Source of the DNA: a virus
Lineage: Duplodnaviria; Heunggongvirae; Uroviricota; Caudoviricetes
Virus record (IMG/VR): IMGVR_UViG_2778261639_000004
Span: 1 to 20,754 of that record
Length of the DNA: 20,754 nucleotides
Direction: 5' to 3' (one strand)
Below the pieces are notes generated by a model, which had not been told where the DNA came from, ran no database searches, and saw nothing but the letters and a program-made list of their open reading frames with translations. Made by a program: the position numbers and the translations under genes. How positions within the stretch are numbered: position 1 is the first letter of the stretch; every line of letters starts with the position of its first letter. Of this stretch, positions 8,929 through 20,754 are shown piece by piece.

Positions 8929-10692
8929 ATGAATGACGTTACAGTTCTTACATCGGTTACTTACCCATCACCCGAGTCGTTGGCTCTGGTGGCTGATGTG
9001 CAATACCACGAACCATATCTGTCAGCCGCTCTAAACCGAAAATTCAGGGGAATTGTTGACCCAGGATTTTATGCTGGTTTCTTGCCTAAGCCTGGCGGTG
9101 GAATGAACCTGTTAATCACCTCAGTGGATGGAGATAAAACCGCTGGCGCGGCGTCAGTGGATATTGGTGAATTCTACCAGGTAACTATTCAGCATCGTAA
9201 GGATATCTCTCTTGCACTTAACGCAGGCAAGAAATATGCAATTGTGCTGAAGGGAAGATACCTTCTTGGAGAAGATACCTATCAGGTGAATACCGCGTCA
9301 CATATTCATGCAGCTGAATTTGTTGCCAGAACCTATACCGATTCATATCAGTTAGGTGATGGGGAACTGCTGGTTTGTACGGTGAATATCCCTGCTGGCG
9401 TATCTACCATTACTCAAGAGATGATTGATACATCCGAGCGTATCAACCGCACGATCGGCATTGATATTTCAGACTCTGTAACCAGTACCAGAAGTGATGT
9501 TGCTGCGAGTTCGCTGGCAGTTAAAAAAGCCTACGATCTGGCGAAAAGCAAGTATACGGCGCAGGATGCAAGCACAACGCAAAAGGGATTAGTTCAGCTC
9601 AGTAGTGCCACTAACAGTACGTCCGAAGTGCTGGCCGCCACACCGAAAGCTGTCAAGGCTGCATATGACCTGGCTAACGGGAAGTATACAGCCCAGGATG
9701 CAACCACGACACAAAAAGGGATAGTTCAGCTCAGTAGCGCCACGAACAGCACGTCTGAAACGCTGGCAGCGACACCAAAAGCTGTTAAGGCGGTAATGGA
9801 TGAAACGAACAAGAAAGCACCATTAAACAGCCCGGCACTGACCGGAACGCCAACAACACCAACAGCGCCACAGGGGACTAATAGTACCCAGATCGCAAGC
9901 ACGGCTTTCGTTATGGCCGCGATTGCCGCACTTGTAGATTCGTCACCTGATGCACTGAACACGCTGAACGAACTGGCTGCGGCGCTGGGCAATGACCCGA
10001 ATTTTGCGACCACCATGACTAACGCGCTTGCGGGTAAGCAACCGAAGGATGCCACCCTGACGGCGCTGGCGGAGCTTGCTACATCAGCAGATAAACTCCC
10101 ATATTTTACAGGGGCAGATCGTGCCGCGTTAACCGCGTTGACAAGTGTTGGACGTGCCATTCTTGGTAAAACCAGCACTCAGGGAGTTCTTGATTACCTT
10201 GGTTTGGGAGAAGGTTCGGCATTACCTGTTGGTGTCCCTGTTCCATGGCCTTCCGCCACTCCGCCGACAGGCTGGCTGAAATGCAACGGTGCAGCTTTTT
10301 CTGCTGAAGAATACCCGGAACTGGCAAAGGCTTATCCGACAAATAAATTGCCTGATTTACGTGGTGAGTTTATTCGTGGCTGGGATGACGGGCGTGGAGC
10401 TGACAGTGGTCGGGGATTATTAAGCTTTCAAAAAGCCACTCTGGTTGAAAGTTTTGGTCTGGTCAGGTCATCAACCACTGGCTCTTATCGTCTGGTTACC
10501 AGACCGACAGAAACTGTTTCTGATAATACGTCTAACTATATGACGACTGATTATGATTCCCATGAAGGTTTATATTCCTCTGCAACAGCATACCCCTCTA
10601 TCGAATTGAAACCAACTGGAGCAGGCGCAGGGGCTGGTTTTAGGGTTCGACCAAGGAATATTGCATTTAACTATATTGTGAGGGCTGCATAA
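8929..10692 (+). CDS. Tail fibre protein (587 aa): constant N-terminal part plus the currently expressed variable C-terminus
   Basis: ATG at 8929 with AAGGA 8 nt upstream. Two tandem 44-aa fibre repeats (AYDLA.KYTAQDA.TTQKG.VQLSSATNSTSE.LAATPKAVKA). C-terminal collar-like motif GWLKCNGAAFS...LPDLRGEFIRGWDDGRG. The crossover site at 10187-10212 lies inside the ORF. The track start at 8842 overlaps the upstream gene and lacks a ribosome-binding site. Confidence 0.85.
   Translation: MNDVTVLTSVTYPSPESLALVADVQYHEPYLSAALNRKFRGIVDPGFYAGFLPKPGGGMNLLITSVDGDKTAGAASVDIGEFYQVTIQHRKDISLALNAGKKYAIVLKGRYLLGEDTYQVNTASHIHAAEFVARTYTDSYQLGDGELLVCTVNIPAGVSTITQEMIDTSERINRTIGIDISDSVTSTRSDVAASSLAVKKAYDLAKSKYTAQDASTTQKGLVQLSSATNSTSEVLAATPKAVKAAYDLANGKYTAQDATTTQKGIVQLSSATNSTSETLAATPKAVKAVMDETNKKAPLNSPALTGTPTTPTAPQGTNSTQIASTAFVMAAIAALVDSSPDALNTLNELAAALGNDPNFATTMTNALAGKQPKDATLTALAELATSADKLPYFTGADRAALTALTSVGRAILGKTSTQGVLDYLGLGEGSALPVGVPVPWPSATPPTGWLKCNGAAFSAEEYPELAKAYPTNKLPDLRGEFIRGWDDGRGADSGRGLLSFQKATLVESFGLVRSSTTGSYRLVTRPTETVSDNTSNYMTTDYDSHEGLYSSATAYPSIELKPTGAGAGAGFRVRPRNIAFNYIVRAA
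9529..9792 (+). repeat. Tandem duplication of a 132-bp unit (~80% identity) encoding the 44-aa fibre repeat
   Basis: Copy 1 at 9529-9660 and copy 2 at 9661-9792, read directly; in frame within the tail-fibre gene. Confidence 0.8.
10187..10212. other. Left crossover site for the DNA invertase (TTCTTGATTACCTTGGTTTGGGAGAA)
   Basis: 26-bp site inside the tail-fibre ORF. Its reverse complement shares the first 14 bp with the site at 12090-12115, and the constant/variable fibre junction (…LGLGE…) maps here. Confidence 0.6.
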
Positions 10693-11729: not shown

Positions 11730-12115
11730 TTACTCACCAACAGCCCACCAACTGTAATTCATCGATACTGTGGAACTGGTTGATGCAGTTCTGTAAGCGG
11801 AATTAAAACCGGTTAATGTTGGACCTTCTGCGGTCATCACGAATCCCCGTCCAGCACCTAAAGGTGCACCACCATCACCAGAATGAGTAAGCATGGCGCA
11901 GTCCACTTTTTTAGGAAAAGGGATGCTGAATGTAATTCTCATTGTTTGCGTCGATAATGTCGGCGTAACCGCACCTCGACCATATTGCAGGATTTTACCG
12001 TTGGGTAATTTCATCCATCCATCACCACTGGCAAAAGAAGCCATATCCGGTATCTGATTTTCCCCTGTTCCCACATCCCGTTTTGCCGCTTCTCCCAAAC
12101 CAACGTTTAAGAAAA
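11730..12115 (-). CDS. Alternative tail-fibre C-terminal cassette, promoterless in this orientation
   Basis: - strand frame is open from the right crossover site to the stop at 11730. The frame across the site encodes …VGLGE…, matching …LGLGE… at the left site, so inversion would fuse it to the constant part of the fibre gene. Confidence 0.65.
12090..12115. other. Right crossover site (TTCTCCCAAACCAACGTTTAAGAAAA)
   Basis: Matches the Salmonella hixL sequence as I recall it at about 19/26 positions, including the AAACC…GTTT core; inverted relative to the left site; 56 bp upstream of the invertase start. Confidence 0.6.
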
Positions 12116-12170
12116 TGCAGAGATTACGGCTAACTGGCATCATCCCCGGTTTTTATTCAGGGGATCCATC

Positions 12171-12743
12171 ATGCTTATTGGCTATGTCCGCGTATCAACA
12201 AATGACCAGAATACAGAATTGCAGCGTAACGCGCTGGAGTGCGCAGGATGTGAACTGATTTTTGAAGATAAAATCAGCGGAACGAAATCAGCCAGACCGG
12301 GATTGAAAAAACTGCTCAGAACGCTATCAGAAGGAGATACGCTGGTTGTCTGGAAGCTGGACAGACTGGGCAGAAGTATGAAACACCTGATCACGCTTAT
12401 TGAGGAATTGCGGGAAAAAGGTGTTAATTTCCGTAGTCTGACGGACAGCATTGACACATCAACACCCATGGGGCGTTTCTTTTTTCACGTCATGGGAGCT
12501 TTAGCCGAAATGGAACGTGAATTAATTGTAGAGCGTACACTGGCCGGGCTGGCAGCAGCACGCGCACAAGGACGCATTGGCGGACGTCGCCCGAAGTTGA
12601 CAAAAGAACAACATGAGCAAATAGCGAGGTTGATCGAAAATGGCTACAGCAGGAAACAGTTGGCAATTATTTACGATATCGGTGTATCGACGATTTATCG
12701 TTATCATCCTGTAGAGAAGCGCCAAACTCAATCTGAGCTGTAA
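12171..12743 (+). CDS. cin: Serine-recombinase DNA invertase, Hin/Gin/Cin/Pin family (190 aa)
   Basis: N-terminus MLIGYVRVSTNDQNT with the catalytic Ser in the VRVST context, VVWKLDRLGRS, and a C-terminal HTH (GRIGGRRPK…GVSTIYRY). Adjacent to the invertible segment. The symbol cin is chosen from the P1-like context; Gin and Pin are close relatives and cannot be told apart without alignment. Confidence 0.9.
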   Translation: MLIGYVRVSTNDQNTELQRNALECAGCELIFEDKISGTKSARPGLKKLLRTLSEGDTLVVWKLDRLGRSMKHLITLIEELREKGVNFRSLTDSIDTSTPMGRFFFHVMGALAEMERELIVERTLAGLAAARAQGRIGGRRPKLTKEQHEQIARLIENGYSRKQLAIIYDIGVSTIYRYHPVEKRQTQSEL

Positions 12744-13178
12744 TTCTAATGCCGCGTCGGTGTAATTTATCTTGATAGAATAGGTACATTTATCGCGCGG
12801 CACATCAATTCGATGTATCTAGCGCCTGCTGACCGCTAATGAAAACTGTTCTCGAAATGTTGTCCCTAGTCCGAGACTAGGGTATCACCTCTGGAAAGCA
12901 TACGCAGAACCTTTTTTAACCCAGGGTGCCCAGCCTTTTTGCTGCTCGCCTTATTCGCAAAAATTAGCTCACATCCTGCGCTTTCAAGTGCTTTTCACTG
13001 CATAGCTGTGTTTTGTTCATTTGTCTATATGCGTACATAGCCTATTAGCATATTTTCTGCCCACTATCGTTATTTATTGCAAGCTACAGGTTTTAATTAA
13101 CAAAACCAGTGTGTGTGGAAATCACAAAGTGCATACCGTTCTCAAATGTTGTTCAACTTACTGTTGTATAGGTAAAAA

Positions 13179-13442
13179 ATGACATTTTATGTACATATCG
13201 TGATGTTATCCCTTCTTGGTGGGGTGTATTCGTATTTGAGTGGGCTATGTGAAAACCGTTACGAGTCTTCATGCAAGAAATTGCTGGCCGAATGTATTTC
13301 CGCCGTACTTGCTGGCTTTATTGGCATGTATCTCGCGGAATATAAGGACATGAATGAAAGCCTTCAGAGCTGCATGGTTCTTATTTTCAGCGCCAATAGC
13401 AGGCTTATTATTGAAGGTTCCAAAAGTCGGTTGAATAGGTAA
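13179..13442 (+). CDS. Possible small membrane protein (87 aa, two hydrophobic segments)
   Basis: Only ORF in the invertase-holin spacer; weak AGGT ribosome-binding site; hydrophobic stretches MLSLLGGVYSYLSGL and ISAVLAGFIGMYL. May be non-coding. Confidence 0.3.
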   Translation: MTFYVHIVMLSLLGGVYSYLSGLCENRYESSCKKLLAECISAVLAGFIGMYLAEYKDMNESLQSCMVLIFSANSRLIIEGSKSRLNR

Positions 13443-13466
13443 GTCTCTTAAGCAACAAATGACCGG

Positions 13467-13490
13467 TTGAGAAGTTACTTTGCATACCAT
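13467..13490 (+). promoter_or_regulatory. Candidate activator-dependent late promoter: ttgagaAAGTTACTTtgcaTACCAT
   Basis: Same 9-mer AAGTTACTT (13472-13480) with the same 4-bp spacing to a TAnnnT hexamer (13485-13490) as at 8434-8452; lies 29 bp upstream of the holin start. The -35-like TTGAGA is only 12 bp from the -10, so sigma-70 alone is unlikely to use it. Confidence 0.4.
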
Positions 13491-13518
13491 TACCTCCTGA
13501 CAACGTAGGAGGGAACTT

Positions 13519-13848
13519 GTGCTTGACACACAGGAATTAGCTCCAGTTGCTATTGCGCTCCTGCTTTCAGTAATTGGTGGGATAGGCACGTTCCTGATGG
13601 ATGTCCGAGACGGTCGCCAGTCTGGCAATTTGTTGGGATTGGTTACGGAGATCTTTGTTGCAGTGACAGCTGGCGCGGTGGCGTACCTATTGGGGCAACA
13701 CGAGGGCTGGGAGTTATCAATTACGTACTTAATGGTAACGATAGCCAGCAATAACGGTCATGAGGTGATTTCAGGGATGAAACGAGTGAATATCGATAGC
13801 ATTCTGAATGTTCTTACAAGTTTGGTGAAAAAGGGAGGTGGGAAATGA
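13519..13848 (+). CDS. lydA: Holin (109 aa; P1 LydA-like)
   Basis: GTG start with AGGAGGGA upstream; two to three hydrophobic helices and a charged C-terminal tail (KKGGGK). First gene after the invertase, as I recall for P1. Confidence 0.65.
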   Translation: MLDTQELAPVAIALLLSVIGGIGTFLMDVRDGRQSGNLLGLVTEIFVAVTAGAVAYLLGQHEGWELSITYLMVTIASNNGHEVISGMKRVNIDSILNVLTSLVKKGGGK

Positions 13849-14288
13849 TTGGCTGGGGTGTATGCGCTCTTGCGTTAGCCTTAGCCGATCGCTATTTGCT
13901 AAAACGCAAGGACATCACGCATTTAGAACTTGGTGATGTGGAAATTAAACCGGGTTTCATCCGGGTGCCGTTCAAATACCGGTCTAAATTCCCGTTTTTG
14001 CGCGGCGCAACGGTCAGATATTGGATCCGCGATGTTCAGAAGCCGACGACAGTGATTGAAGGCGAACAACGTTGTCTGACGTCGGCTGAACAGGGCGAAA
14101 ACAGTGAATGGTTGTACATACCCACTGAATATATGGGTAAAGGAGAGCGACTGTGGAATTTCAACGTCATGGTTACGCATGGCGACTCGTTCATTAACCC
14201 GTTGTATCGGATTTTCCCTGTTACTCAGCAAATCCGCAGAAGTTACGTAATAAATCTCGCACAGGATGTGTCAGATGACGAAAAATAA
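13845..14288 (+). CDS. lydB: Antiholin or lysis regulator (147 aa; P1 LydB-like)
   Basis: ATGA overlap with the holin stop; single N-terminal hydrophobic segment; symbol by synteny and length. Confidence 0.55.
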   Translation: MIGWGVCALALALADRYLLKRKDITHLELGDVEIKPGFIRVPFKYRSKFPFLRGATVRYWIRDVQKPTTVIEGEQRCLTSAEQGENSEWLYIPTEYMGKGERLWNFNVMVTHGDSFINPLYRIFPVTQQIRRSYVINLAQDVSDDEK

Positions 14289-14877
14289 GTATGCAACGGT
14301 CGATTTTGACCAGGTTAATGAAAAGGGGCTGAAATCCCTTATCGCGGCGATCAATAAAACTGGTGTTGCGGTAATTGAGGTTGACTCCAGCAACCGCGCA
14401 ACAACGAAAGATGGCGTTAAAGTTAAAACCGCAAAGCTGGTTCTTAACGACGGACAAATTCTTGCCATACAGGTAAACGATACTGGCGATATATCGTCTG
14501 TGAAACTGAATGGAAAAGCTATTCCTAACGCTCAGTCGCCGGATATCAAGACGCTTGGTACCGTCATGGGACAGGCGGCCCGCAAAAACTCCGCAAAATT
14601 CCAGAAATCACTGATCGCCAAAGCGAAGCGTGTTGCCAATCCGGTAGACAAGAAACCGGCAGTTAAATCCAACTTTCAGCGCCTGCAAGAAGCAAAACAG
14701 CGGAATGCTCAGGTGGTTGCCGCTTATAAATCAGCGCAGAACTCGGTGTCTTTCAATCAACAGCAGATCACTGATTTGCGGGCGAAGCTGGATAAGGAGA
14801 CAGGCCGACTCAATAACGAAAAGGCCCGAAATGGCGAACTCAAACGCCGTCTTAAGCAACTGAAAGCAGGAAATTAA
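14275..14877 (+). CDS. hdf: Short paralogue of the downstream DarA-like protein (200 aa; P1 Hdf-like)
   Basis: ATG at 14275 with AGGA 8 nt upstream (the ATG at 14266 has no spacing to it). Residues ~50-120 align with residues ~140-215 of the next protein (…NDGQILAIQV… / …SDGQTISILF…; …RKNSAKFQK… / …EKNSAKFQR…). Confidence 0.6.
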   Translation: MTKNKYATVDFDQVNEKGLKSLIAAINKTGVAVIEVDSSNRATTKDGVKVKTAKLVLNDGQILAIQVNDTGDISSVKLNGKAIPNAQSPDIKTLGTVMGQAARKNSAKFQKSLIAKAKRVANPVDKKPAVKSNFQRLQEAKQRNAQVVAAYKSAQNSVSFNQQQITDLRAKLDKETGRLNNEKARNGELKRRLKQLKAGN

Positions 14878-14878
14878 C

Positions 14879-16798
14879 ATGGAACAGTTCAATATCAATA
14901 AAGGGGTGACGATCAAGCCTGGGCTTGACGTGCTTCCCCCGCCAGTGACTGATGATGAATATCGCGCATTAATGGCCGGTGAGGACCGCTATCTGATGAC
15001 GGAATCCAACACCCTGGAGGAAATCGAGGCTACGTTCTTCTATGACACGCCGATCCACTGGTGCGCTACGGATTTACTGGAGGCGATTAGTTCTACTCGT
15101 TTGCAGTTACACCGGACCATGCAGGCATTTGTCCGGGCATTGAACCATAAGCTGAATGGTACCGGAATCTCTGCGGGGAGTGATAAAACGGGGGATGTTG
15201 CCCAGAGCGGCGCGCGCGAGATCGGCGGCGCTGAAATTGGTCGGGCACGTAACGTTAACGGGCTGCCGGTCCTGCCAGCCATTATTCCGCTCAGTGATGG
15301 TCAGACTATCAGCATTTTGTTTCATAGCCCGACAGCGGAAAACCGGATCACCAATAGCGATACGCTGGTTGCTTTCCAGTTCTTACTGAATAAAAAAGAC
15401 GTTACTCACACCGTTGCTCCGATGAGTGGACGTGATATGACGCTGGCGCAGGTCACCATGAAACTTGCCAACCTTGCAGAGAAAAACTCGGCAAAATTCC
15501 AGCGTGCGCAGAAGAAGAAAAAAGCCCTGGTTGATGAAATAACCCAACTACAGGCTGACAGTGACCAGAAAGAGGATGCCATGAGCGACCTCGCGGATCA
15601 GGTGGCAGCGGTAGAAGGCCAGAAGGCAGATCTGGAGCAGAAAATTAACGCGGTTGCTTCGGAAGCGGATTCTCTTTATCAAGAAAATGAGCGTTTGCAG
15701 GCGGAGATTGATCAGCTCAATCGCACTGGTGGGCGCGATACCATTGCTCCAGCGGGGATGACTGGTGGGCACTCTCGCGCGCTGACGGATCGCCTTGCCA
15801 GTATCAAAAATCGTATGCATATGGACGGGGAAGCGACGCTCAGTAATGGTGCATCAATGAAGCAATTCATTGGGGATGGCGAAGGGTATATCCAGTTAAC
15901 CGATCCGGATGGCAGCGTATACATGATCAAGGCTAAATCCATACAGGGTGTGGACATGGCAGATGCGATCGGCAAGCTGTTTAAAGCCTATAAAGCGGGT
16001 GATGTATCGGAATATCTGGTCCAACCAGAAGAACATAAACCGGAAAACGTCGAACCTGAACCAGCGGAGGATACCGGTAGCTCTTCGCCTGAACCAGAAG
16101 TCTCTGTAGGTGCATATCGATATGCCCTGCAAATGCGTCCGGCGGCCCCTGGCGCAATACCTGAAGGTAACAAAGCGATTCTGCCGCGCCCTGATGAAGG
16201 TGATCCGTATTATGAATATGCACGCTACGGCATTGCTACTTACGATACCCCGCTTTCTGATCAGCAAATGAGTGAGTACGACCTGAAGTTATTGCCTCGC
16301 GAGGATTCTTTCGACTTCCTGGCGAAGACACTTACTAATGGTCCGTTTGGCAAATATGCACAAAAAGCTCTGGAGCTGGCCACCAGCTCACCAGACGAGT
16401 TCCGCGTAATGCTGAAGACTCAGTTTCAAAAAACTTTCCCCAATATTGCGTTTCCGGGGGGCGCTGGCACCGAGAAAATGGTGCAGAGCATGATCAATGC
16501 ATTGCAGGCCGAAGTCGGTGAGATTACTCAGCCAGAACCGGCCCCGGCACAGCCTGATGAAACGGTTAGCGAAGCAGATGCAGAGGCTAATAAAGCCATT
16601 GAATATCTCAATAACGTGATGGATATGCAAAGCACTGACATGGCGGAGATCCGTAACGCCCGGGGCAATGTCCGGGAAGCGATTGCAGCCCTTCAGGCTG
16701 CCGGACGTTTTGAGGAAAACGAAGAGCTGGTTAATGGCGCTGCTCGCCACCTGGCTGATCTGCTGGTAGCAATCCAGAAAGCGGGGGTAGCGGCATGA
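14879..16798 (+). CDS. darA: Antirestriction, capsid-internal protein (639 aa; P1 DarA-like)
   Basis: Long ORF starting 1 nt after the upstream stop; internal coiled-coil segment (QLQADSDQKEDAMSDLADQVAAVEGQKADLEQKINAV…); Pro/Glu-rich linker. Symbol by synteny, length and the Hdf paralogy; not checked against a database. Confidence 0.65.
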   Translation: MEQFNINKGVTIKPGLDVLPPPVTDDEYRALMAGEDRYLMTESNTLEEIEATFFYDTPIHWCATDLLEAISSTRLQLHRTMQAFVRALNHKLNGTGISAGSDKTGDVAQSGAREIGGAEIGRARNVNGLPVLPAIIPLSDGQTISILFHSPTAENRITNSDTLVAFQFLLNKKDVTHTVAPMSGRDMTLAQVTMKLANLAEKNSAKFQRAQKKKKALVDEITQLQADSDQKEDAMSDLADQVAAVEGQKADLEQKINAVASEADSLYQENERLQAEIDQLNRTGGRDTIAPAGMTGGHSRALTDRLASIKNRMHMDGEATLSNGASMKQFIGDGEGYIQLTDPDGSVYMIKAKSIQGVDMADAIGKLFKAYKAGDVSEYLVQPEEHKPENVEPEPAEDTGSSSPEPEVSVGAYRYALQMRPAAPGAIPEGNKAILPRPDEGDPYYEYARYGIATYDTPLSDQQMSEYDLKLLPREDSFDFLAKTLTNGPFGKYAQKALELATSSPDEFRVMLKTQFQKTFPNIAFPGGAGTEKMVQSMINALQAEVGEITQPEPAPAQPDETVSEADAEANKAIEYLNNVMDMQSTDMAEIRNARGNVREAIAALQAAGRFEENEELVNGAARHLADLLVAIQKAGVAA

Positions 16799-17160
16799 CA
16801 CTATCAGCTATTGAGTTAATGGATCTCAGCGATAAGTTGGATGCTCTGATGTCCAAAGCGGCTACCGCGAGTGGCATGGAGTTGCTGGATATCAGCGATG
16901 AAATTGACCAGATCATGCAACAGATGGGGTACGGCGCGTCCGGCGGCAGTAGTGGCGAGGAAAAACAACCTTCGGTACATGATGGTGTGCCAAAACTGGT
17001 TGCTGATTTCCTGGCTGATAAATTCGTCGATCAGAGCACTGATGCATTTATCGGTACGTTACAGGACTTGAGTCAATATGTTGGCACATACATCGACCTG
17101 GACCAGGTTAAACAGCACACGGCGGCATGGATAGCCGCCAACATTAAAGAGGCAGAATAA
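16795..17160 (+). CDS. ddrA: Small acidic protein (121 aa; P1 DdrA-like by position)
   Basis: ATGA overlap with the upstream stop; acidic with a Gly/Ser linker (GYGASGGSSGEE). Confidence 0.5.
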   Translation: MTLSAIELMDLSDKLDALMSKAATASGMELLDISDEIDQIMQQMGYGASGGSSGEEKQPSVHDGVPKLVADFLADKFVDQSTDAFIGTLQDLSQYVGTYIDLDQVKQHTAAWIAANIKEAE

Positions 17161-17172
17161 GGCGTAACAGGG

Positions 17173-20136
17173 ATGAGCTTAAGCGATCAGGTGGTAATGG
17201 CCACCAGTATAGAAACGCTGATCGAGCTGCTAAAAAACCTGCCCGATTACGGGCGGGTTTCGTATGTGGTGACAGCGAAGGGAGACGAGGTAAAAACAGC
17301 GTTTGATATCGTCGATGCCTCAGCTCTTTTGGTATCCAATACTCTGGACGGGAAAATTAACCCTGACTATCCCCAGGAACTTCAGCCGCGCGACCGGACC
17401 CGCGCATCCAGTCTTCTTCAGGTCAACCAGATATCCAAGGATTTGCGTCCTGCCCAGCTGACCGATTCCGGTTTATCCAGCCATGGCGCGCCGATAATTG
17501 GTGAGGACAATGCCGTTGAGTCAGGTAATGGACGGACCATGGGGATCATCAAAGCCTATCAGGACGGCAATGCGGATCGGTATCGTGAGTACCTGATTGA
17601 TCATGCGACCGAATTCGGCATACGACCTGAAAAGGTTGAATCAATGGCGGCTCCGGTACTGGTGCGCCGCCGGTTAACTAAGATTGACCGCGTTCAGTTT
17701 GCCAAGGACTCAAATATTTCTGATCTTCAGGAAATGGCAGCCAGTGAAAAGGCTTTTGTTGATGCTGACAGCATAACTCCGGCGATGATGGCGCTGTTTA
17801 ACCCATCAGAAAGCGGAGATCTGCTTAGCCGCAGTAATGACGCGTTTATTCGCGGATTCATGACGCAAGTTGGTGCCACACAGGCTGCTGGCCTTGTAAC
17901 GGAAGATGGGCGACCAACACGGCAACTTGTTGACCGTATACAAAACGCGATCTTTGCCAAGGCATATAAGGATGCGCGCCTGGTAAGAATGGTTGCAGAA
18001 GAACCTGATCCGGATATGCGTAATGTTCTGACGGCGCTTAATGCGGCAGCCAATGATTTTGTCCAGATGCAGGCTTTATCAGGAGAAGCGCACAAGCAGG
18101 CTGTGACAACTATTGTTGATGGTATTGAGACAGCGGATAGTCTCGATAAAAAGGCGCTGGCGGCATTGAAAGATGCGGTAGACCTGGTAAGGCAATCGAA
18201 GGAGTCAGGCCAACATATTACCGATGTTATTGCTCAGGGGGATATGTTCAGCGAAACAGCCCCGGAAGTGAAAGCTCTCGCGTTGTTCATCGTCGCGAAT
18301 AACCGTAGCGCGAAGCGTATGGCCACCGCCTTTAAGTTGATGGCGCAACGTATCAATGATGAGTTACAGCACCAGGGCCAGGCGCTTGGGGATATGTTTG
18401 GCGGCGGTGATGTGTCGTTACAGGATATCCTTCGCCAGGTATCTCAGGAACTGGAAAACGAAGGTATGCAAGGGATATCCGGCGGTAGTTACAACGGTGT
18501 TGCTCCATATACCAGCTTGCTATTACATCGGGCATCCGGCATCAAAGACATTATTCATCTGATCAGGCTGCTATCCCGCACCGATCCCCAGGATGAGCAG
18601 CTTGTACAAGTGCTTGCGCATTTTGTCCGAATGCCTGTTGCCGACGTAAAAAAATGGTGCCGATTATTCGGTATCAGCAATTCGTTACTTCGCGGATTGT
18701 TAAATCACGCATCCTCCCTTGGGCGCGACGGCTTTGATGAGATAGCGCAGGCGATAAAAAACGGAGATATGCCACCAGCTATTGACTGGTTTTCCATTCG
18801 CCCAACCAGGGTGAAAGCATTCCTTAGCGCGGCGCATTCGGCATCACCATTGGCAGAAATGGTTCAGAGGTTGTCGCTCATATTCACAGACCATACCGCG
18901 TTGGGTGATCTGACTCTGGACGAGATGAAAGAAGCCTCCATTCAGTGGGCCGATCAACAAAATGAGGTTAACTCTGACTTCTTGCCAGCATTCAGGAAGG
19001 CCGTTAGTAAAGCGGATGATGCCCGTGGAATTCTGAAGGCATTTAAGGCATTGCAAAGTCGTGTTAATAAACATGTCGGTGATATCGATGGGGTAACGGC
19101 GGAAGGCCGGGATATCCTTAAAGAGCACGGCATAACGCCAGAGTTTATTGATGAGATCAGGACTGATATGCAGCGTGAGGTCGTATCGTCCCTGCAAATC
19201 GTAGCCAGAGCGTTGGCGGATGCTAATCCGAAGAGTGCGGCCATTGTTAACCGGGTTATTGGTGATATTGAAGCATCGGAGGGCATGGGGGCACTGAAAC
19301 TCTTCCTTTCGCGAGCGTTTAATCCTAACGGCAATATTCTCCCTGGCATTATTGGTGAGGCTAAAAGGTATGTCAGTGAAGAAGAACTTGAGCAGCTTGA
19401 CCAACTACTTAAGCGATTCTCATATAACCCGCAGACACGCTGGCAAATGAATCAGCGAAGTATGGGTTCGGTCCACGAGAAAGTGTTATCTGCCATGAAC
19501 AGTGCGATCGCAAACTCATCCGTATCTGAAGAAAAAGCTCTTGAGTGGGCCGACTCTTTTATCACGGAAGAAGTGGAAGAAGCCCGCGCTGGACAGAATG
19601 GTGGGATAGACCTGCGCAAGGAACTTGCTGATATTTATCGCCTGACCGGCGGTAAAATTTCGACCTTATCAAAGGTGGTTCACCACCAGGGAAGGGCATA
19701 TGCAAATCTTAATGGTGTTGTTGCTGTCAATTTGAACGATGAAAATGCAAGTGCACTGTGGCACGAGCTGGGTCATCATCTTGAGTACAGTAACCCTGGT
19801 TTGTTAGAGAAAGCCCGGTCATTCCTGAAGGCCAATGTTGAAGGGGATAAGCCATCTTTCGTTAATATCGGTGGGCGTGGCAAGCCTGAATGGTGCTTCA
19901 GATCTCGATTGAGTAATATTTATATGGCGAAGGTATACCCGCCAGCCTCAGTGAGTAACTCCGGGAAAATTCGGCAGAAAGCACCGACTATTTCAAAAAC
20001 ATCAGCAACGGAAGTATTCTCTATGGCTCTTCAGTTGTATCATGACAAAGAGGCCGCTGCCGCATCACTGATGAATGGTGACGGATTGCTGGAACTGTTA
20101 TTAGGTGTGGCAAAGGAGCTAAATAATGCAGATTAA
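17173..20136 (+). CDS. ddrB: Large protein (987 aa) with a C-terminal HExxH motif (P1 DdrB-like by position)
   Basis: Long ORF on the operon strand. HELGH at residues 864-868 (nt 19762-19776) is the zinc-metallopeptidase consensus; no other domain recognised by eye. Symbol by synteny only. Confidence 0.55.
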   Translation: MSLSDQVVMATSIETLIELLKNLPDYGRVSYVVTAKGDEVKTAFDIVDASALLVSNTLDGKINPDYPQELQPRDRTRASSLLQVNQISKDLRPAQLTDSGLSSHGAPIIGEDNAVESGNGRTMGIIKAYQDGNADRYREYLIDHATEFGIRPEKVESMAAPVLVRRRLTKIDRVQFAKDSNISDLQEMAASEKAFVDADSITPAMMALFNPSESGDLLSRSNDAFIRGFMTQVGATQAAGLVTEDGRPTRQLVDRIQNAIFAKAYKDARLVRMVAEEPDPDMRNVLTALNAAANDFVQMQALSGEAHKQAVTTIVDGIETADSLDKKALAALKDAVDLVRQSKESGQHITDVIAQGDMFSETAPEVKALALFIVANNRSAKRMATAFKLMAQRINDELQHQGQALGDMFGGGDVSLQDILRQVSQELENEGMQGISGGSYNGVAPYTSLLLHRASGIKDIIHLIRLLSRTDPQDEQLVQVLAHFVRMPVADVKKWCRLFGISNSLLRGLLNHASSLGRDGFDEIAQAIKNGDMPPAIDWFSIRPTRVKAFLSAAHSASPLAEMVQRLSLIFTDHTALGDLTLDEMKEASIQWADQQNEVNSDFLPAFRKAVSKADDARGILKAFKALQSRVNKHVGDIDGVTAEGRDILKEHGITPEFIDEIRTDMQREVVSSLQIVARALADANPKSAAIVNRVIGDIEASEGMGALKLFLSRAFNPNGNILPGIIGEAKRYVSEEELEQLDQLLKRFSYNPQTRWQMNQRSMGSVHEKVLSAMNSAIANSSVSEEKALEWADSFITEEVEEARAGQNGGIDLRKELADIYRLTGGKISTLSKVVHHQGRAYANLNGVVAVNLNDENASALWHELGHHLEYSNPGLLEKARSFLKANVEGDKPSFVNIGGRGKPEWCFRSRLSNIYMAKVYPPASVSNSGKIRQKAPTISKTSATEVFSMALQLYHDKEAAAASLMNGDGLLELLLGVAKELNNAD

Positions 20137-20431
20137 AATCGCAGCGCCATTAGGCGGAGATGCCATTATCGAATTTGATGATAATGAAGAAGTTTCCGGG
20201 CGTTTAAGCATTATCTCCGGTGACATTACCGAGGACATGATCGCTGAAGCCATAGCTGGGGCAAATCCCAATAGCTATATGGGATTCGTTAACACCCTTG
20301 ATGCTCCCGCAAGTGATGTTCTCCGAACGCTGCATCTTTACGCTGGCTGGTTTGTCGATTGGCCAGCAGTAGAGGGTGGCGATGAGGACGACGATGATTT
20401 TGGGGATCATGTAGACCAGATCGTATATTAA
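20126..20431 (+). CDS. Very acidic small protein (101 aa, about 22 Asp/Glu, C-terminal GGDEDDDDFGD)
   Basis: ATG with AAGGAG 8 nt upstream; overlaps the 3' end of the upstream gene by 11 nt; last gene before an AT-rich non-coding stretch. Confidence 0.5.
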   Translation: MQIKIAAPLGGDAIIEFDDNEEVSGRLSIISGDITEDMIAEAIAGANPNSYMGFVNTLDAPASDVLRTLHLYAGWFVDWPAVEGGDEDDDDFGDHVDQIVY

Positions 20432-20754
20432 CTCCCTGATAGTGCACAAATAATCTGTTCTGATATGTTAATTGTGTACTTAAAGTAAACGCGTAGTGGC
20501 TTGCTTTAGGTTATGGAAGCAAGCTATTGCCTAATATGTTAGATCAAAAAATTTTAATTTTTGCGTTTCGCTCACCACATATTGAACACTTTAGCCGATC
20601 TTTTTATTGTTGCAGAGTCAATCCTGAAGCTACATATTGTTTAATATCTCTTCGTCATTGCATATTCAGAGGGTAAAGATATACACATACTAAAATGAAT
20701 TGGCTTAGCTCGTTATTAATCAGAATTCGATGAGACTACTCCATTTTAGGGAAT

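Follow-up and report, generated by a model that had tools for sequence, protein, structure and literature searches.

A 20,754-nt stretch of viral DNA (IMG/VR record IMGVR_UViG_2778261639_000004; hereafter, the window) carries seven adjacent ORFs at 13519-20431, raising the question of whether these genes constitute the darA antirestriction operon of phage P1, as a sequence-only reading had proposed, and whether such an operon is properly described as an anti-defence module. The window covers pmgC to hxr (20.7 kb), with the darB, ulx, lpa and pro loci lying outside it. Our analysis indicates that the segment is almost certainly the dar (darA) late operon, carried by a temperate myovirus of the P1/P7 type, a phage-plasmid of the genus Punavirus.

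Identity and organisation of the operon

We determined the sequence identity, gene order, promoter, terminator and domain content of the operon directly from this DNA (Table 1). The ORF listing bore out the proposed sizes and order of the seven genes, all on the + strand, and the GenBank annotations of P1 and P7 agree with the suggested match to P1 lydA-lydB-hdf-darA-ddrA-ddrB plus one more gene, with the order unchanged. The arrangement on a single strand (lydA, lydB, hdf, darA, ddrA, ddrB, hxr) is that of a P1-type dar operon; in P7, hdf, ddrA, ddrB and hxr are named odaE, odaC, prt and odaA, respectively. The additional gene is hxr, which the P1 entry AJ000741 includes in the darA operon as ORFVIII, before the terminator. 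All seven proteins matched their P1 counterparts at 97-100% identity, including the 639-aa and 987-aa products on whose similarity to DarA and DdrB the proposal hinged, and domain models agreed for DarA, Hdf and DdrB.

Table 1. Features of the operon and its upstream flank, in window coordinates.
Feature	Coordinates	Strand	Length	Product and comparison
cin remnant	12875-13051	-		Truncated; between invertase and operon
lydC-like	13179..13442	+	87 aa	Accessory holin; Pfam Phage_holin_3_3 E=1.2e-9; PHROG 1527 holin
LPdar	13472..13490	+	19 nt	Predicted Lpa-dependent late promoter; -22 box AAGTTACTT, -10 TACCAT
lydA	13519..13848	+	109 aa	Holin; GTG start; 109/109 identical to P1 and P7 LydA; Pfam PF16083, PHROG 1527
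lydB	13845..14288	+	147 aa	Antiholin, LydA antagonist; 143/147 identical to P1, 145/147 to P7; Pfam PF16084 LydB E=5e-102
hdf	14266..14877	+	203 aa, or 200 aa from ATG at 14275	200/203 identical to P1 Hdf
darA	14879..16798	+	639 aa	Internal head protein (antirestriction, head-size determinant); 629/639 identical to P1 DarA
ddrA	16795..17160	+	121 aa	Virion protein, acidic (pI 4.1); 116/121 identical to P1 DdrA
ddrB	17173..20136	+	987 aa	Polyvalent virion protein; 973/995 identical to P1 DdrB, 981/995 to P7 Prt
hxr	20126..20431	+	101 aa	Acidic orphan; overlaps ddrB stop by 11 nt
Terminator region	20441..20530	+		Two hairpins; second with 15-bp stem at 20493-20530

The successive gene junctions comprise a 4-nt overlap, an overlap, a 1-nt gap, a 4-nt overlap, a 12-nt gap and an 11-nt overlap, and this tight spacing is consistent with a single transcription unit. 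The ATG at 14275 is the hdf start annotated in P7. Upstream of lydA, LPdar is identical at 19/19 positions to the copies annotated in NC_005856 and P7, and the pattern AAGTTACTT-N4-TANNNT was matched exactly at just two sites in the window, LPdar and 8434-8452, ahead of gene R. At the other end, AJ000741 places the terminator 30-103 nt past ORFVIII, to which the hairpins of the window correspond; P1 and P7 conserve this sequence, and the predicted RNA fold (-34.5 kcal/mol, z=-3.9) was not equalled in stability by any of 200 shuffled sequences. A search for the C1 operator consensus across the window returned no site. Late in lytic growth, LPdar would drive one transcript from lydA through hxr, ending at the hairpin terminator.

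Relatives, flanks and integrity

Megablast of 13000-20754 returned 19 P1-like phage records at 96-98% identity across 94-100% of the query, and the full-length operon DNA is 96-98% identical to that of P1, P7, phi456, JL22, SJ46 and RCS47. The module also occurs in 618 plasmid records, representing Enterobacteriaceae P1-like phage-plasmids (e.g., pMCR_SCKP-LL83 (MF510496), SJ46, RCS47 and JL22), and in approximately 395 of the 5,426 complete genomes of E. coli. Values of dN/dS against P1 and P7 for hdf, darA, ddrA, ddrB and hxr were 0.04-0.26; since 19 phage and 618 plasmid records match and dN/dS is low, the operon ORFs are not chance occurrences.

P1 itself (AJ000741; NC_005856) has the seven genes with the same order and overlaps, an identical LPdar and a conserved terminator, at 96.2% nucleotide identity over 99% of the query. 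It differs in its DdrB, from which the window lacks eight residues, in its LydC and, from approximately 20652 onward, downstream of the terminator, where the window tracks P7 rather than the isaB/IS1 region of P1. P7 (NC_050152), with the gene series lydA-lydB-odaE-darA-odaC-prt-odaA, shows 98.1% nucleotide identity, an OdaA identical to Hxr at 101/101 positions and an identical downstream flank up to the window end, although it carries the long DdrB allele. The LydC-like protein is divergent from both, with 54/94 residues (57%) identical to P1 LydC and 23/96 (24%) to that of P7, so the similarity to P7 begins only at approximately 13468, just before LPdar. In P1, lydC forms a monocistronic early unit (PMC9025707); it lies just upstream of the operon as a separate unit, outside the seven genes.

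The suggestion that the operon sits directly next to the invertase was only roughly accurate: the two are near each other, but the intact invertase stops at 12743, which leaves 775 nt before lydA, and the cin remnant and lydC intervene. This + strand enzyme is of the P2-cassette type, 76% identical to P1 Cin, opposite in orientation to P1 cin and replacing it. It matches serine-recombinase models and, at approximately 190 aa and beside an invertible tail-fibre segment bounded by an 18-nt inverted repeat (10196-10213 and 12089-12106), has the features of a Cin/Gin/Pin/Hin serine DNA invertase. Among the 618 plasmid records, 373 match no less than 80% of 12000-20754 and carry the + strand 'pin' recombinase and the 87-aa LydC-like protein along with the operon; none is 100% identical over the region, the best reaching 98.0%.

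The mosaic neighbourhood, with its cin remnant, replaced tail-fibre and invertase cassette and divergent lydC, together with a 24-nt deletion in ddrB, could be taken to mean that this copy is a decaying, non-working remnant in a defective prophage-plasmid. We regard this as highly improbable: all seven ORFs are intact, the ddrB deletion preserves the reading frame, neither the promoter nor the terminator has changed, dN/dS is well under 1, and the tail and baseplate genes in the flanks are intact. The deletion, which is the main difference from P1 DdrB, removes eight residues (SGGLFESV) after residue 435 relative to P1 and P7, and the same 987-aa allele recurs on seven public contigs, which also argues against decay. 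On public contigs bearing the exact allele, the porin and ssb genes come next, as in P7.

Lysis, head assembly and antirestriction

The operon is not purely an anti-defence module, as it mixes lysis, head morphogenesis and antirestriction (PMC9025707, PMC12810830). Its first two genes encode a holin and an antiholin rather than antirestriction proteins (PMC9025707); LydA would act as the main holin and LydB as its antagonist, the two jointly setting lysis timing. In P1, CRISPRi scored lydB as the sole essential gene of the operon, and the dar genes of the operon were dispensable on a non-restricting host (PMC10695390).

The next three products are recognisable as Dar proteins. Hdf, a basic protein (pI 10.2), matched Pfam DarA_N (E=2e-21) and PHROG 1620, 'Hdf-like antirestriction'; DarA scored 1097.5 bits against the NCBIfam equivalog NF052326, 'antirestriction phage head protein DarA' (cutoff 350), and contains DarA_N (E=1e-41) and DarA_C (E=6e-17) domains (PF18788, PF18789); and DdrA matched PHROG 1855, 'DdrA-like anti-restriction protein' (E=8e-58). 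PADLOC matched DarA to LmuB, JetC and PbeC only within its coiled-coil segment; we discounted these matches as compositional, and the NCBIfam SMC matches for the same reason.

Hdf, DarA, DdrA and DdrB are all present in purified P1 virions (PMC9024508), and cryo-EM of P1 has located 55 DarA-Hdf pairs on the inside of the capsid, with ordered loading (PMC12810830). On this precedent, Hdf of the window is presumably the inner-capsid partner of DarA; the two would bind pairwise inside the procapsid, on its inner face where pentons and hexons meet. Loss of DarA or Hdf reduces normal-size P1 heads from approximately 80% to approximately 15% (PMC12810830). These structural roles, together with the holin-antiholin pair and the essentiality of lydB, favour viewing the operon mainly as a lysis and head-morphogenesis cassette, in which antirestriction is secondary and the anti-defence label wrong. 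We consider that view unlikely, though deserving of some weight, given that darA was genetically defined by lost protection from type I restriction and that DdrA, DdrB and the DarB/Ulx branch are without a known morphogenetic role. Head morphogenesis and antirestriction are coupled roles of this operon, not alternatives.

In P1, the six virion Dar proteins work in cis (PMC12707154). At infection, the Dar proteins would exit the head with the DNA and act in cis to shield that same DNA from type I restriction, with DarB and Ulx supplied from elsewhere in the genome. Protection would be split, with DarA, Hdf and DdrA countering EcoA and StySA, and EcoB and EcoK being countered by the DarB branch. 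For the present element, packaging, its order, injection and protection in cis are thus expected by extension from P1, at 97-100% protein identity.

DdrB and Hxr

The last two genes had been singled out as the least characterised, which is apt for Hxr but not for DdrB, a virion protein detected in P1 with 59.5% mass-spectrometric coverage (PMC9024508) and already described as having ParB-like and metallopeptidase domains and undergoing processing (PMC5512222). Both domains were confirmed here: a ddrB-ParB domain at residues 36-167 (Pfam PF18763, E=8.3e-40) and, at approximately residues 780-987, a zincin-like metallopeptidase fold with the invariant HExxH motif present as HELGH at 864-868. DdrB thereby carries both of the polyvalent-protein hallmarks that we tested (Iyer et al. 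2017). Sequence searches of solved structures gave nothing significant, whether the query was full-length DdrB or its C-terminal domain and whether it was run singly or as a profile; the best match was FtsH across HExxH (E~0.7). By analogy with P1, DdrB probably cleaves itself here as well, which would yield the virion form of approximately 76 kDa.

The distant P1 relative Escherichia phage D6 (MF356679) has cin, lydA, lydB, hdf, darA, ddrA and ddrB in the order found here. Its 454-aa DdrB corresponds to the N-terminal module alone (61% identity over residues 2-467), and D6 has neither the metallopeptidase domain nor an Hxr homolog. D6 orf23 and orf24 were considered as equivalents of Hxr or the DdrB C-terminus and were rejected for lack of similarity.

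Hxr is lineage-restricted and translationally coupled to ddrB. It is strongly acidic (pI 4.05, 22 D+E against 3 K+R, net charge approximately -19) and contains a poly-Asp tract. The P1 genome annotation describes it as an Xre-like transcriptional repressor, a label whose sole support is the original annotation note of 28% identity with a phage Xre repressor across approximately 58 residues; many records now repeat it. We give this assignment very little credence, as Hxr returned no helix-turn-helix (HTH) or other Pfam or NCBIfam domain even at E<=10, and so lacks the HTH expected of the Xre family, and its charge is unlike that of a DNA-binding repressor. In addition, its AF2 model, of moderate confidence, adopts a beta-beta-beta-alpha-alpha-beta arrangement rather than the five-helix Xre fold, with no HTH protein among its fold matches, and the gene would be expressed from a late promoter as the last in an operon of virion proteins.

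A speculative reading, to which we attach a low probability, is that Hxr is not a repressor and may instead be an unrecognised seventh Dar component or helper. Inhibition of restriction or of other DNA-binding defence proteins, in the manner of a DNA mimic, is one role it could have; alternatively, it could chaperone or inhibit DdrB or the basic Hdf while the head is being loaded. That Hxr is absent from the P1 virion proteome carries little weight, given a study cutoff of two unique peptides: with just three K/R residues, Hxr yields at most three to four peptides on tryptic digestion, of which two span 34-41 residues, and could easily be missed.

In summary, this operon is already known from sequencing in 1997, the P1 genome in 2004, genetics in 1987 and 2017, and cryo-EM in 2026, and its re-identification here has little discovery value. 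Its use lies in annotation hygiene, as many records still label these genes 'hypothetical', Hxr 'putative repressor' and DdrB 'Prt', and in two small leads. One is independent structural support for placing the DdrB C-terminus among zincin peptidases of the anthrax-lethal-factor/PPEP type; the other is Hxr, a genuinely uncharacterised acidic protein inside an anti-defence operon.

Identity and distribution of the dar operon

Seven closely spaced plus-strand ORFs occupy positions 13519-20431 (109, 147, 203, 639, 121, 987, and 101 aa), with adjacent genes overlapping by 4-23 nt or separated by gaps of at most 12 nt. In coordinates and sizes, the ORF listing agrees with the sequence-only reading; the third ORF, hdf, encodes 203 aa, or 200 aa when started at the second ATG (14275). 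That reading had likened the gene order to P1 lydA-lydB-hdf-darA-ddrA-ddrB plus one more gene, and our comparison bore this out. P1 is annotated in the same orientation as lydC, LPdar (the Lpa-dependent late promoter), lydA, lydB, hdf, darA, ddrA, ddrB, and hxr, so that the extra gene is hxr in P1 and odaA in P7, where the final five genes are named odaE, darA, odaC, prt, and odaA. A megablast search of 50,697 phage records with 13000-20754 as the query returned 19 P1-like genomes, at 96-98% identity over 89-100% of the query, among them P1 (NC_005856; AJ000741, "Bacteriophage P1 darA operon"), P7, phi456, JL22, SJ46, and RCS47. In AJ000741 (1997), hxr appears as ORFVIII, the last ORF of the operon, with a terminator annotated 3' of it.

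Identity to the P1 proteins was 109/109 for LydA, 143/147 for LydB, 200/203 for Hdf, 116/121 for DdrA, and 98/102 for Hxr, which is also identical to P7 OdaA (101/101). The 639-aa and 987-aa proteins proved similar to P1 DarA and DdrB, as had been anticipated, with 629/639 and 973/995 identical residues. The seven-gene feature is the dar operon already known, and the window as a whole represents a structural region of the P1/P7 type (pmgC, tub, pmgB, sit, pmgA, bplA, gene 16, R, S, and U). Matches were found in 618 PLSDB plasmids, mostly non-mobilizable phage-plasmids from E. coli, Salmonella, and Klebsiella, and the ddrB segment was present in 395 of 5,426 complete E. coli genomes, nearly always plasmid-borne. 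By dN/dS against P1 and P7, hdf (0.07), darA (0.11-0.23), ddrA (0.26), ddrB (0.04-0.09), and hxr (0.13) are all kept as coding genes.

Domain architecture of the operon proteins

Domain tests independent of the annotations matched LydA and LydC to Phage_holin_3_3, LydB to PF16084, Hdf to DarA_N, and DarA to both DarA_N and DarA_C; DarA also passed the NCBIfam DarA equivalog (1097 bits, cutoff 350). DdrB carries a ddrB-ParB domain at aa 36-167. Because no Pfam model covers its C-terminus, the metallopeptidase that Iyer et al. (PMC5512222) assigned there was put to a direct test. Exhaustive phmmer searching with aa 741-987 as the query yielded 388 homologs; HExxH was present in 147 of 148 aligned segments, with H864, E865, H868, E871, Y917, and E947 invariant and E906 nearly so, and an AlphaFold2 model of the domain from an 18-sequence alignment reached pLDDT 89.8 and pTM 0.87. 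DdrB is therefore a ParB-like domain fused to a zincin domain, in agreement with the publication. An antisense 122-aa ORF with a TTG start within ddrB (17727-18095, minus strand) corresponds to P1's annotated "iddB"; nothing in this analysis supports it as a real gene, and the ddrB frame is under strong purifying selection.

The window's ddrB has an in-frame 24-nt deletion at 18478 (codon 435/436), falling between two 9-nt direct repeats (TCCGGCGGT) and removing SGGLFESV from a Gly/Ser-rich stretch past the N-terminal module. This short allele is rare: its junction occurred on 0 IMG/VR contigs and the long allele on 56, and the top matches among complete E. coli genomes all carried the long allele. 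The exact 987-aa DdrB was found on seven public contigs, for example GCA_002485275.1 NNUQ01000065.1, where hxr, a porin gene, and ssb come after it, as in P7.

The last two genes had been described as the least characterized, which holds for Hxr alone and not for DdrB, whose domains are published. Hxr (pI 4.05; 22 acidic versus 3 basic residues) contains a poly-Asp tract that differs in length between relatives. Searches against Pfam and NCBIfam found neither a helix-turn-helix nor any other family, leaving its designation as an Xre homolog or putative repressor unsupported. Its predicted mixed alpha/beta fold, of moderate model confidence, had no match in a fold search. Homologs were confined to P1-like elements. 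The only diverged copy (61% identical) lies at 2024-2326 of a 2.7-kb contig from Logan SRR4294974, with roughly 60 nt resembling the 3' part of ddrB ahead of it, no ddrB gene, and a DinI-family gene nearby; given this context, Hxr may exist outside the dar operon.

Flanking invertase cassette and regulatory signals

Features flanking the dar operon
Feature	Position	Strand	Description
Serine recombinase (invertase), 190 aa	12171-12743	+	76% identical to P1 Cin
cin remnant	12875-13051	-	first ~59 codons and upstream promoter region of the original P1-type cin
LydC-like holin, 87 aa	13179-13442	+	54/94 (57%) identical to P1 LydC, 23/96 (24%) to P7 LydC
LPdar late promoter	13472-13490	+	19 nt identical to P1's; -22 box AAGTTACTT, -10 TACCAT
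Two hairpins (second with 15-bp stem)	20441-20530		3' of hxr; conserved with P1 and P7

The operon had been placed directly next to the invertase, which is indeed nearby, but the cin remnant and lydC intervene. Rather than being P1 cin, the invertase gene is part of a P2-like tail-fibre/invertase cassette that shares 88.8% identity with a P2-like prophage in E. coli O157:H43 T22. The gene lies on the strand opposite to P1 cin, and its transcription therefore runs away from the invertible segment, as with Mu gin and pin. This "pin" arrangement is common to many P1-like plasmids. The cin remnant is a leftover from replacement of the C-segment/invertase cassette. Together with the start of the intact invertase gene (12171-12271), its segment at 12951-13051 makes up an inverted repeat of 101 nt (76%).

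An 18-nt inverted repeat, ACCTTGGTTTGGGAGAAG (94% complementary), has one arm at 10196-10213, inside the tail-fibre gene S, and the other at 12089-12106, immediately ahead of the invertase. Its arms are probably crossover sites of the cix/gix type, likely bounding an invertible segment of about 1.9 kb (Sv-U / U'-Sv'), less than half as long as the 4.2-kb P1 C segment. Gene S encodes only about 590-616 aa, compared with 988 aa in P1. The LydC-like holin is far more divergent than the remainder of the region, and the match to P7 picks up again precisely at LPdar; the cin-lydC interval thus appears to be a hotspot for recombination among P1-like elements.

Besides LPdar, the late-promoter pattern AAGTTACTT-N4-TANNNT has one other exact match in the window, at 8434-8452 (plus strand), 31 nt 5' of gene R (8483-8917). 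P1 likewise has a late promoter ahead of R, and this match probably serves the R-S-U tail-fibre operon in that role. The hairpins following hxr are far stabler than shuffled sequence (z = -3.9). Past this terminator, at 20652-20754, the P1 match ends (isaB/IS1 region) and the P7 match goes on; beyond the P7-like flank, related contigs carry an NmpC/OmpD-type porin gene and then ssb.

Expected functions and the conserved core

The "anti-defence module" proposed from sequence does contain antirestriction genes, but the operon is mixed, combining lysis, head morphogenesis, and antirestriction. In P1, LydA acts as the main holin and is antagonized by LydB, and upstream lydC encodes an accessory holin under its own early promoter (PMC9025707). 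Dar proteins guard only the DNA packaged with them, in cis, against several type I systems and BREX (PMC12707154), and purified virions were found to contain Hdf, DarA, DdrA, and DdrB (PMC9024508). By cryo-EM, 55 pairs of DarA and Hdf sit on the inner face of the capsid at penton-hexon junctions, where they contact DNA, and emptied heads lack them; deletion of darA or hdf lowers normal-size heads from ~80% to ~15% and keeps out all remaining Dar proteins, which otherwise load after DarA/Hdf in the order DdrA, DdrB, DarB, Ulx (PMC12810830). On a permissive host, every dar gene and hxr are dispensable (PMC10695390). Given 97-100% identity, the window's proteins would be expected to have the same roles.

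The distant P1 relative D6 retains lydA through ddrB and lacks Hxr; its DdrB (6992-8356 of the D6 record; 454 aa) comprises the ParB module without the metallopeptidase domain. By this comparison, the two halves of DdrB are separable modules, and the operon's conserved core stops at the ParB module.
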